Below, one piece after another: positions 1,845 through 7,179 of a stretch of DNA of 8,892 nt (within the stretch, counting starts at the first letter, position 1; each line of letters begins with the position of its first letter). Position numbers and translations under genes: made by a program. Below the pieces are notes generated by a model. The model was not told where the DNA came from and ran no database searches. It worked only from the letters and a program-made list of their open reading frames with translations. Source of the DNA: a virus (taxonomy: Duplodnaviria; Heunggongvirae; Uroviricota; Caudoviricetes); the IMG/VR virus record IMGVR_UViG_2534682109_000012; one strand, 5' to 3'.

Positions 1845-2132
1845 TCAGATAGAGAAGGGAAATTGTCGCCGAGAATGTGTCACGCTTACAATCTCAATGC
1901 TTGAAGCAGCTACTCTGTACAGGATTATGTAGTTAGGGTGGGTCACGATCTCTCTCAATCCAGAAACCCGTTCGCTTGGTGGATATAAGTACGGATGCTC
2001 AGATAGAGGTAATACCGATGTTTCAATGCGTATTTTTAGTCTACGTGCTGCCGGTGGGTTCTCCTTGGCGATGTAAGTTATGATCTGGCGCAAATCATCG
2101 CGAGCAGACGGTAGCCATAAAATGGGTAACAT
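1845..2132 (-). CDS. parE2: ParE/RelE-family type II toxin (95 aa), third gene of the regulator-antitoxin-toxin operon
   Basis: Translation MLPILWLPSARDDLRQIITYIAKENPPAARRL...GLREIVTHPNYIILYRVAASSIEIVSVTHSRRQ has the conserved ParE pattern (N-terminal W..A..DL..I..YI, central GLRE, C-terminal NYIILYRV...IEIV.V.H.RR). Its ATG overlaps the antitoxin TAA by one base (TAATG). Symbol by analogy to the paaR2-paaA2-parE2 operon of E. coli O157:H7 prophages, recalled from memory. Confidence 0.8.
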   Translation of the reverse strand: MLPILWLPSARDDLRQIITYIAKENPPAARRLKIRIETSVLPLSEHPYLYPPSERVSGLREIVTHPNYIILYRVAASSIEIVSVTHSRRQFPFSI

Positions 2133-2323
2133 TACTCGCTCTTGTTAGTTACAGCAATTTGAGCAATAAGATTTTCCATTTCAGCCATTACCTCGTCATG
2201 TGGAATTGCGGGGCGAGTGTCTGCAAGGCTTGACGTTACTTTAGTGCGCAACCATTCGTTGTAACTGTTTTCTTGTTCGGTAGTTTCGAATTCTGAAACT
2301 ATCGGAGAAAGGGCTGTACCCAT
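2132..2323 (-). CDS. paaA2: PaaA2-like antitoxin (63 aa) of the three-component TA module
   Basis: Translation MGTALSPIVSEFETTEQENSYNEWLRTKVTSSLADTRPAIPHDEVMAEMENLIAQ matches my recollection of the PaaA2 antitoxin (63 aa). It sits immediately upstream of and overlapping the ParE gene; GAGGAG lies 7 nt before the ATG. Confidence 0.75.
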   Translation of the reverse strand: MGTALSPIVSEFETTEQENSYNEWLRTKVTSSLADTRPAIPHDEVMAEMENLIAQIAVTNKSE

Positions 2324-2350
2324 GGCATAACTCCTCTTCTTGTACTGTGG

Positions 2351-2752
2351 TCACGCCCGGCGGCTTTTTTGTGCCGCCAGCCACCTAGCAATGGTTTCTT
2401 CCATTGATTTTTTCTTGTCTTTGATTTCTTGAAGCATTTTTTCTTGGTCTTCCTCAGGAAACGCACTAAAAGCTTGGAGCAGTTCGCGTTGGCGAGGACC
2501 AATTTTCATCGTGTCAGGGGTGAAAATTTGCTCACACTCTTCAGGAGGCAATAAAAACCAATGCAATGGATGCCCTGAAACCTCAACCAGTTTATCCAAA
2601 CTTGAGGCTTTAGGTGTAGCCTTACCGCTGACCCATTGTTGAACAGTTTGTTGTGTCACACCAATTCTACGGGCAAGCTCAGCCTGGCTCCATCCAGTTT
2701 CCTGAAGAAGCTTGCTGATTCTGTACATAGATACTTCTAGGGCGCTCATCAT
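2351..2752 (-). CDS. paaR2: HTH (XRE/DicA-like) transcriptional regulator, PaaR2-like; CI-equivalent repressor of the immunity region
   Basis: Helix-turn-helix WSQAELARRIGVTQQTVQQWVSGKATP; the C-terminal LPPEE...RELLQAFSAFPEEDQEKMLQEIK segment resembles the DicA C-terminus, and there is no S24 peptidase domain. It is divergent from the Cro-like gene and first gene of the TA operon. The start is ambiguous (ATG at 2752 or 2749, neither with an SD), possibly leaderless. Confidence 0.8.
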   Translation of the reverse strand: MMSALEVSMYRISKLLQETGWSQAELARRIGVTQQTVQQWVSGKATPKASSLDKLVEVSGHPLHWFLLPPEECEQIFTPDTMKIGPRQRELLQAFSAFPEEDQEKMLQEIKDKKKSMEETIARWLAAQKSRRA

Positions 2753-2860: not shown

Positions 2861-3133
2861 ATGCTAGATAGCACTCGCGAAAAAATTAGGCAGAAATACA
2901 CTCAGGCTGAAATAGGTCGTTATATGGGGGTCGCTCAACAGACTGTTTGGCAATGGTTTAGCTTTGGCGTTCCCCCAAAGCAGGTAATTCCGTTATGCCA
3001 ACTAATGAAGTGGGAAGTTACCCCGCATGAAATCCGCCCAGATATTTATCCTAACCCAACCGACGGTTTACCTGTTGGATGTAAGGTTAACACATCAAAT
3101 GCGCCGGAGTTGATTCATGAAAATCAAGCATGA
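2861..3133 (+). CDS. ydaS: Cro-like HTH DNA-binding protein, YdaS family (90 aa)
   Basis: HTH TQAEIGRYMGVAQQTVWQWFSFGVP followed by the EV..HEIRPDIY motif I associate with the YdaS family. It is divergent from the repressor with a strong RBS. Symbol by synteny and family resemblance, from memory. Confidence 0.7.
   Translation: MLDSTREKIRQKYTQAEIGRYMGVAQQTVWQWFSFGVPPKQVIPLCQLMKWEVTPHEIRPDIYPNPTDGLPVGCKVNTSNAPELIHENQA
3110..3127. promoter_or_regulatory. Perfect inverted repeat TTGATT-N6-AATCAA at the ydaS/ydaT junction; candidate YdaT (CII-like) binding site
   Basis: Read directly: TTGATTcatgaaAATCAA. It overlaps the ydaT start codon (3117-3119). I recall that YdaT of prophage CP-933P was reported to recognise a TTGATT-N6-AATCAA repeat; that recollection is unverified. 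Confidence 0.4.
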
Positions 3134-3542
3134 ACACATCCGCATGGCGATGAATGCCTGGGCGCATCCGGACGGCGAAAAAGTACCGGCTGCGAAAATT
3201 ACCAAAGCGTATTTCGAGCTGGGAATGACGTTCCCGGAACTGTATGACGACAGCCATCCGGAAGCCATGGCTCGCAATACTCAGAAAATTTTCCGCTGGG
3301 TGGAGAAAGACACTCCTGATGCGGTTAAAAAAATTCAGGCGTTGTTACCAGCGATCGAAAAAGCGATGCCGCCTCCGCTGGTGGCCCGAATGCGCAGCCA
3401 CAGTTCCGCTTATTTTCGGGAGTTGGTAGAGACGAAGGAACGGCTGGTGAAAGATATTGATGATTTCGTTGCATCAGCGATCGTTCTGTTCGATCAGATG
3501 AATCGTGGTGGCCCGGCAGGAAACACTCTGGCTGTGCATTAA
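3117..3542 (+). CDS. ydaT: YdaT-like protein (141 aa), proposed CII-functional-equivalent / toxic regulator of Rac-type prophages
   Basis: Second gene of the rightward operon; it overlaps the ydaS 3' end by 17 nt, with GGAG 8 nt upstream of the ATG. Length and position match YdaT of Rac/CP-933P; sequence family recognised from memory only. Confidence 0.7.
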   Translation: MKIKHEHIRMAMNAWAHPDGEKVPAAKITKAYFELGMTFPELYDDSHPEAMARNTQKIFRWVEKDTPDAVKKIQALLPAIEKAMPPPLVARMRSHSSAYFRELVETKERLVKDIDDFVASAIVLFDQMNRGGPAGNTLAVH

Positions 3543-3555
3543 TTGGGTAATAAAT

Positions 3556-4065
3556 ATGAGTAATGACAAAAAATTGACACTGAGCGTTTACGAAAACAGT
3601 CCGCACATCTGGCGTGGCGGTTTATCTGATGTGGAGCTGGCAGAGTGGTTGATACATAAAGCTAATGCGCTGCTCTGGCGTTTGTCAGCCAGAGAACAGC
3701 GCAAGGAAACCAGAATAAAGCTGGCTGATGCAGAAGCGTGTGCCGGGCTTATTGAGGATTATACAAATCTTGGTATTTCTTCAGCAGAGAGTGATCCCAT
3801 TCAGCCTCTGAGCAGGGAGTCAATCCAGCACGCTGGTTGTATGGCACATCTTGTAACTGCTCGTCAACATGAGGTGGGTATTGGATCACTTCCGGCGGGA
3901 TATTCGCTGATTCCAGAGCTGGTTGAAGCAAGAAAATCAGTTCAGAAAAAGAGAGATGACGCACTTCAATTATTGAGAGAGCACTATGGCGCGATACCAG
4001 AATGCGAACAGCGTCGATACCCTGAAGGTTATGAATGGATGCAGTCTCTTTTTGAAGTTCGCTAA
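3556..4065 (+). CDS. Hypothetical protein (169 aa), unknown function
   Basis: Internal ATG of track ORF 3505..4065, chosen because it starts 13 nt after the ydaT stop (the track start would overlap ydaT). The translation is protein-like (MSNDKKLTLSVYENSPHIWRGGLSDVELAEWLIHKANALLWRL...). No family recognised; weak SD. Confidence 0.5.
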   Translation: MSNDKKLTLSVYENSPHIWRGGLSDVELAEWLIHKANALLWRLSAREQRKETRIKLADAEACAGLIEDYTNLGISSAESDPIQPLSRESIQHAGCMAHLVTARQHEVGIGSLPAGYSLIPELVEARKSVQKKRDDALQLLREHYGAIPECEQRRYPEGYEWMQSLFEVR

Positions 4066-4282
4066 TCAATATGTCGAGACGAAGGTATGTTTCGGCGCGC
4101 AGCCAGGCTCTGTAATCCGGGAGCATTTCGGGGCTGTTACACCAGCGGTTTGTTGCTGCAACATTTAATACATGAGCCTGATAAAGGCTTTTCAAAAAAT
4201 ACATGTCGAACCTCCTCTGGTTCTGTCGATTGGGAACCACAGATTATATCCGGAGGAAGGTTCGGCACCAGATGAGGTAGCC

Positions 4283-5374
4283 ATGCGTGATTACGCAAAA
4301 GTTTCTCCGCGATTCTGGCTGGGAGAAACGGGGAGAGAACTTAGAAAGGCGGGTGCAGAAGCGCAAGTTGTTGCTTTTTACCTGATGACATCCCCTCACG
4401 CAAATATGCTGGGTTTGTATTACCTGCCAGTTTTATACCTTGCTCATGAAACCGGGCTTGGTCTGGAAGGGGCTTCAAAGGGGCTTAAAAGGGCTGTTGA
4501 AGCTGGTTTTTGTAGCTATGACCATGATGCAGAGATGGTCTGGGTCCATGAAATGGCAGCCTGGCAGGTTGGGGAAACGTTGAAGCCTGGCGATAACCGT
4601 TGTGCAGGTGTCAGGAATGAGTATGCATCATTACCTGAAAACGCTTTTCTGTCAGTGTTTTACGACAGATATAAAACGGATTTCCATCTGGATGTGAGGC
4701 GGAATAATAGCCGAAATTCGGTAAGGGGCTTCGAAGGGGCTTTTAAGGGGCTTCGAAGCCAAGAACAGGAACAGGAGCAGGAGAAAGAACAGGAACAGGA
4801 CAAAAACACTATGGTTCATGGCAAAAAAAACACCACGAACCAGGCAGGGGATGTTCAGACCGTCAATCCTGGTCAGCCAGCAGGCACGACACCGGAAGCC
4901 GATTCGGGCGCTGTGCAGCAGGTGATGACCGCAGGGTCGGAGCAATCACACCAACTGCAGCAGCCTGAAGCCGATTCCGCCATTCAGCGGGAAGCCGATC
5001 GGGTAGTCCCGGAAAGCACCGGGCAGTCTGTGGGACGAGTGGATTATCCGGATGTGTTCGAACAGGTCTGGCGGGAATACCCGTTGCGTGCTGGGGCAAA
5101 CCCGAAGAAATCCGCTTTCAGTGCCTGGAAGGCCAGATTGCGCGAGGGGGTGCCACCAGAGACCATGCTGGATGGTGTGAGGCGTTACGCGAGATACCTG
5201 GCGGCGACCGGGAAAGCGGGAACGGAATTTGTTCAGCGAGCGACGACGTTTTTTGGGCCGGACCGGAATTTTGAAAACCCCTGGTTGCTCCCGGTAAGCG
5301 GCACGAACAACCAGCGTTGTGTGAATCATATTTCTGAACCGGATACCGAAATTCCGCCGGGATTCAGGGGGTGA
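4283..5374 (+). CDS. Phage replication initiator / replisome-organiser-like protein (363 aa from this start)
   Basis: ATG at 4283 preceded by GAGGT at 4 nt (the track start at 4172 has no RBS but cannot be excluded). The C-terminal segment FEQVWREYPLRAGANPKKSAFSAWKARL...G resembles the F..FW..YP.K..K..A...W motif of phage replisome-organiser domains. It lies directly upstream of the DnaC-like gene, contains internal iteron-like DNA repeats, and its stop overlaps the dnaC-like RBS region. Confidence 0.65.
   Translation: MRDYAKVSPRFWLGETGRELRKAGAEAQVVAFYLMTSPHANMLGLYYLPVLYLAHETGLGLEGASKGLKRAVEAGFCSYDHDAEMVWVHEMAAWQVGETLKPGDNRCAGVRNEYASLPENAFLSVFYDRYKTDFHLDVRRNNSRNSVRGFEGAFKGLRSQEQEQEQEKEQEQDKNTMVHGKKNTTNQAGDVQTVNPGQPAGTTPEADSGAVQQVMTAGSEQSHQLQQPEADSAIQREADRVVPESTGQSVGRVDYPDVFEQVWREYPLRAGANPKKSAFSAWKARLREGVPPETMLDGVRRYARYLAATGKAGTEFVQRATTFFGPDRNFENPWLLPVSGTNNQRCVNHISEPDTEIPPGFRG
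4467..4496. repeat. Cluster A of 11-bp-phased direct repeats AAGGGGCTT (2 perfect copies plus 1 degenerate)
   Basis: Copies at 4467-4475 and 4478-4486, with a degenerate AAGGGCTG at 4489-4496; the spacing is exactly 11 bp. Lies inside the initiator gene (peptide EGASKGLKRAVEAGF). Confidence 0.6.
4723..4760. repeat. Cluster B of 11-bp-phased direct repeats AAGGGGCTT (3 perfect copies) ending in the palindrome GGCTTCGAAGCC
   Basis: Copies at 4723-4731, 4734-4742 and 4745-4753, 11 bp apart; the palindrome GGCTTCGAAGCC is at 4749-4760. Cluster B is 256 bp downstream of cluster A and inside the initiator gene (peptide RGFEGAFKGLRSQ). Candidate ori iterons. Confidence 0.6.
4763..4801 (+). repeat. 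GAACAG/GAGCAG hexanucleotide tandem repeat encoding an EQEQEQEKEQEQD acidic linker
   Basis: Read directly: GAA CAG GAA CAG GAG CAG GAG AAA GAA CAG GAA CAG GAC, in frame with the initiator gene and immediately after repeat cluster B; followed by an A-rich stretch. Confidence 0.7.
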
Positions 5375-5380
5375 TGTGGC

Positions 5381-6127
5381 ATGAAAAACATTGCGGCAGC
5401 CGGGGTTCTTGAACGTATTCGCAGACTTGCACCACAGGCGTCGGTTCCACCGTACCGGACGGTGGAGGAGTGGCGGGAATGGCAACTTGCTGAAGGACGA
5501 AAACGCAGCGAGGAGATTAACCGCCAGAATCACCAGTTGCGGGTGGAAAAAATCCTGAATCGTTCGGGCATCCAGCCTCTGCACAGCAAATGCTCGTTTG
5601 CGAATTATCAGGTGCAGAACGACGGGCAAAAATACGCGCTGAGCCAGGCCAAATCCATAGCTGACGAACTGATGACCGGGTGCACGAATTTTGTGTTCAG
5701 CGGTAAAACCGGCACCGGGAAAAATCACCTTGCAGCGGCGATGGGTAACCGGCTGATGGCGAAGGGGCGCAGCGTGATTATCGTCACCGTGTCTGATGTC
5801 ATGAGCGTGTTGCATGACAGCTACGACAACGGCAAATCCGGGGAAAAATTTTTACAGGAGCTTTGCAGTGTTGATTTGCTGGTCCTGGATGAAATAGGCG
5901 TTCAGCGGGAGACGAAAAACGAGCAGGTGGTATTACACCAGATAATTGATCGCCGGACAGCATCACTGTGCAGTGTCGGGATGTTAACAAACCTGAATCA
6001 TGCCGCAATGAGTACACTTCTTGGTGAGAGGATTATGGACCGCATGACCATGAACGGTGGTCGATGGGTGACGTTTAACTGGGATAGCTGGCGTCCAAAT
6101 GTCAGCAATATGAGGGTTGTGAAGTAA
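5381..6127 (+). CDS. DnaC-like replicative helicase loader (AAA+ ATPase, 248 aa)
   Basis: Walker A FSGKTGTGKNHLAAAMG and Walker B DLLVLDEIGVQ; long collinear similarity to E. coli DnaC as I recall it (SGKPGTGKNHLAAAI...VDLLVIDEIGVQ...MLTNSN...LGERVMDRM...FNWDSYR). Same length and position as YdaV of Rac. Confidence 0.9.
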   Translation: MKNIAAAGVLERIRRLAPQASVPPYRTVEEWREWQLAEGRKRSEEINRQNHQLRVEKILNRSGIQPLHSKCSFANYQVQNDGQKYALSQAKSIADELMTGCTNFVFSGKTGTGKNHLAAAMGNRLMAKGRSVIIVTVSDVMSVLHDSYDNGKSGEKFLQELCSVDLLVLDEIGVQRETKNEQVVLHQIIDRRTASLCSVGMLTNLNHAAMSTLLGERIMDRMTMNGGRWVTFNWDSWRPNVSNMRVVK

Positions 6128-6148: not shown

Positions 6149-6865
6149 ATGGAAACCGTATCTGACGCACTGAAAGCACTGAAAAAAGCCTCTTCACATG
6201 TGGTGGCAGCTCGCCTTGGAATTAGTCGTGAAGAGGCTGTCAACGAACTGTGGAAACTGAAACGCCGTGGAGAAGCGGATAACAAGGGGGCGATATGGTG
6301 GCTGACTCAGGCTGGTGAAAGTGAACCGGTGTCACCGGTACCGAAAGTGACGGCGCAAATGCTGACAGAGGCGATTGAACAACATGGCCCACAAACGGCG
6401 GATGAACTGGCATTGATGTTCGGAATTACCTCCCGCCGGGCGAATTCATCGCTGGCAATGGCAATCAGCAAAGGGTGTCTGATTCGCGTGAATCAGGATG
6501 GTAAATTTCGTTACTGCATACCGGGCGTTGATTTACCGGCAGAGCCGAAAGCAGCATCCGTAGCTGAAACGGAGGGTAAAGCCCTTCCTCAGCCAGCTGG
6601 TGTTGCGTTACCAGTCCAGGAAACGGCTGCACAGGAAGAAATTAAAACAGAAGCGGTGGAGGACATTGTGAAGTTGCAGCAATCGTTCACTGAAGCGAAA
6701 GCAGATGACCTGATTCTACCATCGCTGCATGTGGCTAACCGCGAGCTGCGCCGGGCGAAAAGTAATGTTCAGAAGTGGGAGCGAGTCTGTGCTGCGCTAC
6801 GGGAACTGAACAAACACAGGGATATTCTCCGGGATATTACCGCCACCAGAGAGCAGCAGCGGTGA
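6149..6865 (+). CDS. Hypothetical protein (238 aa) with two N-terminal winged-helix-like segments and a C-terminal charged helical region
   Basis: ATG at 6149 with GGAGG 8 nt upstream. Two similar segments ([25 protein letters not shown] and [37 protein letters not shown]) look like winged-helix DNA-binding motifs. Occupies the position of ydaW-type genes after the DnaC-like gene. Confidence 0.65.
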
Positions 6866-7179
6866 GTGGCTGGAAGAAGTGGCGCTGGGCTGAAATCCTG
6901 ATACTCCGGCAGTGTGCGGGAACGATGAGAGTCGAAAGCATCGGTTATCTGATTGGCCGTAGTGAGTCAGCCGTCAGGACGAAAGCGCGGGAACTGGGTA
7001 TCAGCATGATGTTACGGGGTGATTATCACCAGTCAGCCAAATGTTCACAGCGTGATATTGAGCTGGCGTGGCAACTGCATCAGCGTGGTGTACCCCGACG
7101 GGAAATTGCCGAAAAGTTTGGGATGAAGTTGGGCGCAGTGAATAACTACGTTTATTTCGACAGGAGGGTTCAGGAGTGA
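6862..7179 (+). CDS. Small two-HTH DNA-binding protein (105 aa) with GcrA-N-terminal-like motifs
   Basis: GTG start overlapping the upstream TGA (GTGA). Motifs [11 protein letters not shown]...[21 protein letters not shown] and [32 protein letters not shown] resemble the W..E..L...G.S...IA..LG.S..AV..K...LG HTH pattern of GcrA-like domains. Alternative starts are the track start at 6775 and an ATG at 6925. Confidence 0.55.

Follow-up and report, generated by a model that had tools for sequence, protein, structure and literature searches.

Comparative evidence for two interlocked convergent genes between ydaT and the replication initiator of a Rac-like prophage of Escherichia coli O157:H7

What lies between ydaT and the replication initiator gene of a Rac-like prophage? 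We analyzed a stretch of 8,892 nt of viral DNA (IMG/VR record IMGVR_UViG_2534682109_000012; hereafter the window), which is the early (immunity and replication) region of a Rac-like, CP-933-type lambdoid prophage of E. coli O157:H7. A preliminary description of the window reported at this place an open reading frame (ORF) of 169 amino acids (aa) without a recognizable family (3556-4065), followed by 217 bp (4066-4282) that it took for an unusually long untranslated interval with an in-frame ATG at 4172; an antisense ORF at 3749-4240 was mentioned only in passing. All of these coordinates are correct. We find, however, that the comparative evidence argues for another reading of the interval: in all likelihood, 3556-4282 is a compact module of two real, interlocked convergent genes. 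One is the 169-aa ORF on the plus strand (the plus gene), the other is contained in the antisense ORF (the minus gene), and the two share their 3' portions (Table 1).

Several kinds of evidence identify the minus gene. The full antisense ORF encodes 163 aa from a GTG and 151 aa from the ATG at 4204; 6 nt ahead of this ATG stands a perfect Shine-Dalgarno sequence (GAGGAGG, 4217-4211) that is kept in all homologues of the minus gene. RefSeq annotates the gene here as 'ECs1072 family phage-associated protein', and does so in hundreds of E. coli genomes. The protein belongs to NCBIfam family NF033230 (105.3 bits against a curated cut-off of 70, E=2.7e-30, profile positions 3-141 of 142), an entry of the hypothetical equivalog class without assigned function. 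AlphaFold2, from only 8 sequences, predicts an all-alpha fold with a predicted local distance difference test score (pLDDT) of 89.5 and a predicted template modeling score (pTM) of 0.86. In codons 1-46 of the minus gene (4066-4204), where there is no plus ORF, the ratio of non-synonymous to synonymous divergence (dN/dS, computed here and below by the Nei-Gojobori method) is 0.06-0.40. The family comprises 45 clusters and occurs in Klebsiella, Serratia, Enterobacter, Raoultella, Yokenella, Salmonella and E. coli. A weak hint of expression comes from a 2007 microarray study of a Sakai culture, in which the 70-mer probe for ECs1072 changed 2.1-fold at the transition to stationary phase.

The plus gene starts 13 nt past the ydaT stop codon and is co-directional with the early (PR-type) operon. 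Its product matches PHROG 8304 over the full length (E=4.2e-120, positions 1-169 of 169), an entry for which no function is given; this was the sole match, with zero in Pfam, NCBIfam or PADLOC, so the preliminary description was right that no informative family could be named. A distant member of the plus family, at locus L021 of our set of homologous loci, matches the same entry at 1e-23. Clustered at 50% identity, the family forms 22 clusters, with the conserved motifs TLxVFKNSPHIWxGGLExxELAxWL, YAxLGxSxxxSDPIxPLSxEAI and PVGYSxLPDL, and in most homologous contexts a Shine-Dalgarno sequence of its own precedes the gene. In plus codons 1-64 (3556-3748), where there is no minus ORF, dN/dS is 0.06-0.28 in every pair compared. 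Constraint of this strength in the private part indicates that the plus ORF is a real gene.

The critical region is the segment that both genes would encode; it accounts for some 62% of the plus gene and some 70% of the minus one. Codon position 1 of one gene lies opposite position 1 of the other, and plus position 3 lies opposite minus position 2 (the phase called 'sas11' in OLGenie), so that a synonymous change in one gene is almost always non-synonymous in the other. We compared homologous loci from E. coli (74-88% identity), from Salmonella (45-55%) and from 19 IMG/VR contigs whose plus protein is about 30-40% identical. In both frames, synonymous divergence is lower in the overlap than in the private parts. 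For three independent close pairs pooled, dNN/dSN, which reports on the plus frame, is 0.36 (interval 0.20-0.61), and dNN/dNS, which reports on the minus frame, is 0.30 (0.17-0.54). With six pairs, including the distant viral set, the two ratios are 0.45 (0.32-0.64) and 0.28 (0.20-0.38).

Two controls bear on these values. A fictitious antisense frame placed in the private parts served as a negative control and gave ratios of 1.06, 1.23 and 1.76, while the true frame gave 0.10-0.29. A natural control is provided by S. Minnesota (L007/L008), in which the plus gene has been lost: there, dNN/dSN is 1.1-1.2 and dNN/dNS is at most 0.37, with minus-synonymous sites saturated. The authors of OLGenie state that estimates in the sas11 phase are overestimates (PMC7531306), which makes the overlap test conservative. 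The comparison of the two frames across relatives, which the preliminary description had proposed, therefore returns constraint on both, and indicates that each frame is under purifying selection in its private part as well as in the overlap.

Another check is the avoidance of stop codons. We shuffled synonymous codons while holding the protein and the codon usage of one gene fixed. With the minus protein fixed, the last 85 codons of the plus frame acquire 0.65-3.56 stops in the shuffles; with the plus protein fixed, the minus frame acquires 2.9-4.6 stops across the overlap. The number observed in the overlap is zero in every lineage that has the plus gene. In other words, both long ORFs are longer than the shuffles lead one to expect by chance.

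The genes are also conserved as a pair. At each of the 19 loci with distant homologues of the plus gene, a full-length ORF of the ECs1072 family lies antisense to it, in the same phase, and ends at plus codon 62-64. The plus gene itself is intact at 18 of these 19 loci, and the phase and architecture of the pair are kept at about 30-40% protein identity. No case of a plus gene without a minus gene was found in the sample, and the minus gene is intact at 76 of 77 loci. The sole disrupted minus gene among the 77 is that of L069, an O157-like contig (99% identity), which has an in-frame stop at 1792-1794 and an intact plus gene.

At least five prophage contexts in Enterobacterales contain the module (Table 1). 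In every context examined, the plus gene is co-directional with the neighboring early-region genes and the minus gene is antisense to them; at L013, this co-direction means that the plus gene lies downstream of a cI-like repressor gene. Such a distribution indicates that the pair moves as a unit between different prophage early regions of Enterobacterales.

Upstream of the minus gene is a conserved leader with a -10 and a -35-like element (Table 1), which together form a putative sigma-70 promoter of the minus gene; the 5' untranslated region would be about 33 nt long. The spacer of this putative promoter holds an anti-Shine-Dalgarno arm (approximately 4252-4268) complementary to the Shine-Dalgarno sequence and the start region. 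The leader is predicted to fold into a hairpin of 14 pairs, most of them invariant, with a minimum free energy of -26.3 kcal/mol (z -2.8), and this hairpin could sequester the Shine-Dalgarno sequence and the start codon in read-through transcripts. If transcription starts downstream of the -10 element, only read-through transcripts would be silenced in this way.

The leader is not confined to the ECs1072 family. In 55 IMG/VR contigs it precedes at least six unrelated families of cargo: proteins of 75 aa (n=1), 78 aa (n=3), 83 aa (n=14) and 151-153 aa (n=24), the ECs1072 family itself (n=8), and a protein of 131 aa that has a hydrophobic segment at its N-terminus (n=4). It also stands at the ydaT/initiator junction of other Rac-like prophages. 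Loci with the leader are, besides the window, L018, L019, L020 and L080-L134. The preliminary description had assumed that Rac-type prophages go from ydaT directly to the replication gene; others in fact carry different cargo at the same junction. From this distribution, the leader appears to act as a shared expression cassette.

A second convergent pair with the same geometry and the same leader was seen at L019 (1875-2508), in Actinobacillus phage vB_Apl-pPE4 (PP818812), and also at L082. It consists of a 137-aa plus ORF and a 151-aa minus ORF that share about 235 nt, both annotated in the phage record. We considered homology of this pair to the one in the window. For the minus protein there is none (hhalign probability 0.2% against the ECs1072 type), and for the plus protein it is limited to a 23-residue N-terminal motif (hhalign E=0.0017). 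A homologue of the pPE4-type minus gene stands in tandem after the ECs1072-type gene in L007/L008.

What, then, becomes of the 217 bp after the plus gene? Positions 4066-4204 are codons 1-46 of the minus gene, and 4205-4282 are its leader and the ribosome-binding site of the initiator, so the interval is not the long untranslated one that had been supposed. Of the elements that it was thought to hold, a promoter is plausible, although it would serve the minus strand. A small RNA found no support: the only Rfam match is DicF at 121-172, with none in 3556-4282. We also considered a PRE-like promoter activated by YdaT in 4066-4282 and rejected it, because the YdaT operator sits at 3110-3127. The suggestion that the initiator truly begins at ATG 4172 fails on three counts. 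The homologue L002 (88% identity) carries a 1-nt insertion within 4172-4282; the match to PHROG 1701 starts at residue 38 of the extended protein, which is the Met at 4283, and RefSeq starts there too; and the stretch codes on the opposite strand (minus dN/dS 0.06-0.40).

A number of observations weigh against a module of two genes and against the expression signals proposed for it. The selection tests are our own implementation, with an OLGenie-style classification of sites for the overlap, and use few sequences; in deep pairs the plus-frame signal is weaker (dNN/dSN 0.82-0.93, confidence interval including 1). The plus gene is intact in most loci, and is lost or broken in five lineages. Beyond the L003-type deletion listed in Table 1, it is frameshifted in L013/L014 and in L039, and it is absent from L007/L008, which give no tblastn match and have 3-4 stops in the plus frame. 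L076/L077 (1495-1981), whose lambda-type context has the order cI / cro, cII, module, initiator, lack the plus family's N-terminal domain through deletion. Even so, no stop interrupts the plus frame there for 152 codons, over the full length of the minus gene, and degenerate versions of the plus-family motifs are still present, so that some of the openness of the plus frame could be a by-product of constraint on the minus frame. The AlphaFold2 model of the plus protein is of low confidence (pLDDT 55, pTM 0.26), and PGAP/RefSeq leaves the gene unannotated. Among 50,697 GenBank phage records there were no protein matches for either gene; at the DNA level there was one match, confined to the 80-nt leader, and a scan of one genome per species with the distant plus homologues gave zero matches. 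For neither gene did we find evidence from transcripts, ribosome footprints or proteins. In 3400-4400, a consensus promoter scan called no site (the -35 is poor) and a terminator scan found none for either gene, the sole terminator-like site being on the plus strand inside ydaT. Covariation in the leader hairpin amounts to one compensatory pair only.

Some of these observations would follow if only the minus gene were functional and the plus ORF were a decaying or dispensable remnant, its open frame a passive by-product of minus composition. PGAP annotates the minus gene alone, the five lineages with a broken or lost plus gene still have an intact minus gene, the plus protein has a pLDDT of 55, and the L076/L077 plus frame is open without its N-terminal domain; moreover, the chance of seeing zero plus-frame stops given the minus protein reaches 0.3-0.5 in some lineages. 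We consider this account improbable nonetheless, since the plus gene has a dN/dS of 0.06-0.28 in codons 1-64, outside the overlap, forms 22 clusters with conserved motifs and Shine-Dalgarno sequences, and is intact in 18 of the 19 distant loci. Within the overlap, its dNN/dSN is 0.36-0.45 with intervals below 1, against 1.06-1.76 in the controls and about 1.2 in S. Minnesota, which has lost it. Frame-disrupting variation, which the preliminary description had named as evidence against the plus ORF, does occur in some lineages; we read it as secondary loss of an otherwise conserved gene. Of the profile search and structure prediction that it had recommended for the 169-aa protein, the former led to PHROG 8304 and the latter to the low-confidence fold noted above.

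The converse account is that of the preliminary description: the plus gene would be the only real one, opposite a shadow ORF on the minus strand, and 4066-4282 would be a spacer without translation that contains a promoter, a small RNA or the initiator N-terminus. While the plus gene is indeed co-directional with the operon, and the interval does hold a promoter-like -10 and a stable hairpin, the substitution pattern already contradicts this account. The minus gene has a dN/dS of 0.06-0.40 in 4066-4204, where there is no plus ORF, and is under selection even where the plus gene is absent; its protein has a confident predicted fold and a curated family match, and its strong Shine-Dalgarno sequence and ATG are conserved. 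With no Rfam match, and with an ATG 4172 extension excluded by the 1-nt indel and the start of homology, we give this account almost no credence. It could also be that both genes are real but that nothing in regulation or function depends on their overlap: genome compression would have packed two unrelated accessory genes tail to tail, and they would behave as any pair of neighbors does. Compact genomes are the rule in phages, neither protein can be assigned a known function, and the leader serves unrelated cargo genes that lack a plus partner. Against this, the phase and the end-point at plus codon 62-64 are kept family-wide despite saturation of synonymous sites, and the plus gene was never seen without the minus gene in the sample. 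An antisense overlap of 105 codons constrains both proteins heavily and would probably not have lasted if the genes could be pulled apart by a few indels without cost. An overlap without meaning is therefore quite improbable in our judgment, and we retain the module of two interlocked genes.

What might such a module do? Searches by sequence and by fold (Pfam, PADLOC, PDB) gave neither protein a relative of known function, which counts against any functional proposal, as does the fact that our model draws on context: orientation, the variable-cargo leader and the asymmetric pattern of loss. Specifically, we found no membership in a toxin, antitoxin or defense family, with no PADLOC match at E<=1, no Pfam match and no PDB relative. 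Nor is the leftward unit a small RNA of the lambda oop type, since it is a selected 151-aa coding gene, with no minus-strand terminator in 3400-4400 and no Rfam match. We found no paper describing the plus/minus pair.

We offer the following model tentatively, and as a whole it is more doubtful than likely. The minus gene would have an accessory role and be expressed, under prophage repression, from its own leader; the slot in which it sits would be one where this leader drives at least six unrelated cargo genes. The plus gene would be expressed only on read-through of the early lytic operon. Convergent transcription and formation of an RNA duplex would make expression of the two genes mutually exclusive, and the anti-Shine-Dalgarno arm would block translation of the minus gene from read-through transcripts. 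The physical overlap would cause the pair to be inherited together. Under this model, the plus protein would most likely regulate or counteract the minus protein in lytic growth; a counteracting role would explain why the plus gene has decayed in some, possibly cryptic, prophages while the minus gene was kept.

More speculatively still, the module might be an ancient, self-contained two-state switch, in which a lysogen effector alternates with an early-lytic partner that neutralizes or replaces it and the two are never co-expressed. The folded minus protein could, with the same reserve, be an effector for exclusion, defense or host modulation, the antisense overlap enforcing both mutual exclusion and co-inheritance. 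If this is true, the module would be a toxin-antidote or defense/self-immunity pair built by dual coding and not as an operon, and the pPE4-type pair, with the same geometry and leader, hints at a recurrent design.

Table 1. Features of the two-gene module, its contexts and the surrounding early region. Positions are those of the window; numbers beginning with L denote homologous loci.
Feature	Position or locus	Strand	Remarks
Plus gene	3556..4065	+	169 aa; ATG 3556, TAA 4063-4065; PHROG 8304
Minus gene	3749..4204	-	151 aa; ATG 4204-4202, stop 3751-3749; RefSeq coding sequence WP_000273724.1
Dual-coding segment	3749..4065	both	317 nt; about 105 codons per gene
TTT run	3587..3589	+	1-bp deletion in L003-type E. 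coli (e.g. 2013C-4538) shifts the plus frame at codon 11; minus protein identical
Minus-gene leader	4205..4272	-	about 70 nt; kept in every context of the ECs1072-type family
Inferred -35-like CTGGTG	4271-4266	-	poor; TTGGTG in relatives
Inferred -10 TATAAT	4248-4243	-	perfect; 17-nt spacer from the -35-like element; positions conserved
Initiator Shine-Dalgarno (GAGG) and true start ATG 4283	4274..4285	+	RefSeq start
Context: between YdaT-type CII and initiator	window, L038		
Context: between Cro and CP76-type CII	L021		
Context: after lambda-type CII	L076		
Context: Int-Cox...Ash-ExoVIII early region, Salmonella	L004-L010		
Context: beside cI-like gene	L013		
ParE/PaaA-type toxin-antitoxin pair and cI-like repressor	1845-2752	-	
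YdaS/Cro	2861-3133		
YdaT (CII equivalent)	3117-3542		
O-like/DnaD-like initiator	4283-5374		
DnaC-like loader	5381-6127		

The surroundings of the module are those of a known type of immunity region. Positions 3400-4500 are found at 99% identity or more in 446 complete E. coli genomes and are present in 541 of 5,426. The published YdaT operator OM, TTGATTcatgaaAATCAA (TTGATT-N6-AATCAA), occurs at 3110-3127, at the ydaS/ydaT junction, which places the PRE-type promoter of this prophage family between ydaS and ydaT. Together with the ParE/PaaA/PaaR-type genes on the minus strand (1845-2752), the operator identifies a CP-933P/M-type immunity region, the subject of PMC8630535 and PMC9986795. The DicF small RNA mentioned above (Rfam RF00039) is on the minus strand and scores 76.9 bits, the gathering score being 48. 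Its place close to the left end of the window is what the dicB region of such prophages would lead one to expect. A second long antisense ORF, of 289 aa (4946-5815, minus strand), lies within the initiator and DnaC-like loader genes and may be a shadow ORF. In the best-matching O157:H7 genome (L001, NZ_AP018488.1; 8536-11101), the IS66-family element ISEc8 splits a DUF977 gene downstream of the replication genes. The DUF977 ORF is intact in the window (6775-7179), which accordingly represents a copy or strain without the ISEc8 insertion.

Few long antisense overlaps of protein-coding genes have been reported in bacteria and phages, and these are only partly established (PMC9927249). In the present case, the private part of each gene independently shows coding, and the overlap test has a built-in negative control as well as a natural control in the loss of one partner. 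The pair thus offers a clean, testable model of how two proteins evolve together when they share their DNA. It has consequences for annotation as well: the minus gene alone is called by RefSeq, and the plus gene alone by other gene callers. The conserved leader, for its part, marks a variable cargo slot in Rac-like and lambdoid early regions, and hence a place to look for new functions expressed in the lysogen.

Taken by itself, each gene is already a member of a catalogued family, and neither is new. The minus protein is a member of NF033230, for which we found nothing on its last 105 or so codons being read antisense by a second conserved gene; the plus protein matches PHROG 8304 over its full length, and that entry is silent on an antisense partner. 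The deeply conserved, convergent, dual-coding pairing of the two families, on the other hand, is something that we did not find in the literature.

Parts of the arrangement have counterparts in well-known systems. Fold-back inhibition of the IS10 type blocks translation from read-through transcripts; the leader resembles it in that, ahead of the putative transcription start, there is an arm able to pair with the Shine-Dalgarno sequence and the start region, although here the structure is predicted only, with one compensatory pair. In phage lambda, oop is a 77-nt non-coding RNA with its own terminator, and the pO promoter lies at the cII-O junction. As there, a leftward promoter (putative in our case) stands just upstream of the replication gene, and its transcript would be antisense to a gene downstream of cro/cII in the PR operon; unlike oop, the leftward unit encodes a 151-aa protein with a predicted fold, and no terminator is predicted. 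A classic moron is free of overlap with its neighbors and comes with a promoter and a terminator of its own. Our module is like prophage morons and accessory slots in that a conserved leader precedes at least six unrelated cargo families at a similar site, antisense to the early operon, and differs from the classic moron in that no terminator was found and the cargo is interlocked with an operon gene.

The closest comparison is with the antisense overlapping protein-coding genes reported in E. coli O157:H7 (PMC9927249) and Pseudomonas aeruginosa (PMC8850804). As in our case, one stretch of DNA there encodes two proteins, one on each strand, and the dNN/dSN and dNN/dNS tests apply (OLGenie, PMC7531306). 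Both of those studies rest on expression data, and the strength of ours is comparative evidence, so that the profiles of support are opposite. The P. aeruginosa cases are evolutionarily novel ORFs embedded in annotated older genes (PMC8850804). The pair described here, by contrast, is known from sequence comparison and consists of two genes of similar size set tail to tail, each with a private 5' part and its own ribosome-binding site, that are co-conserved across Enterobacterales prophages.

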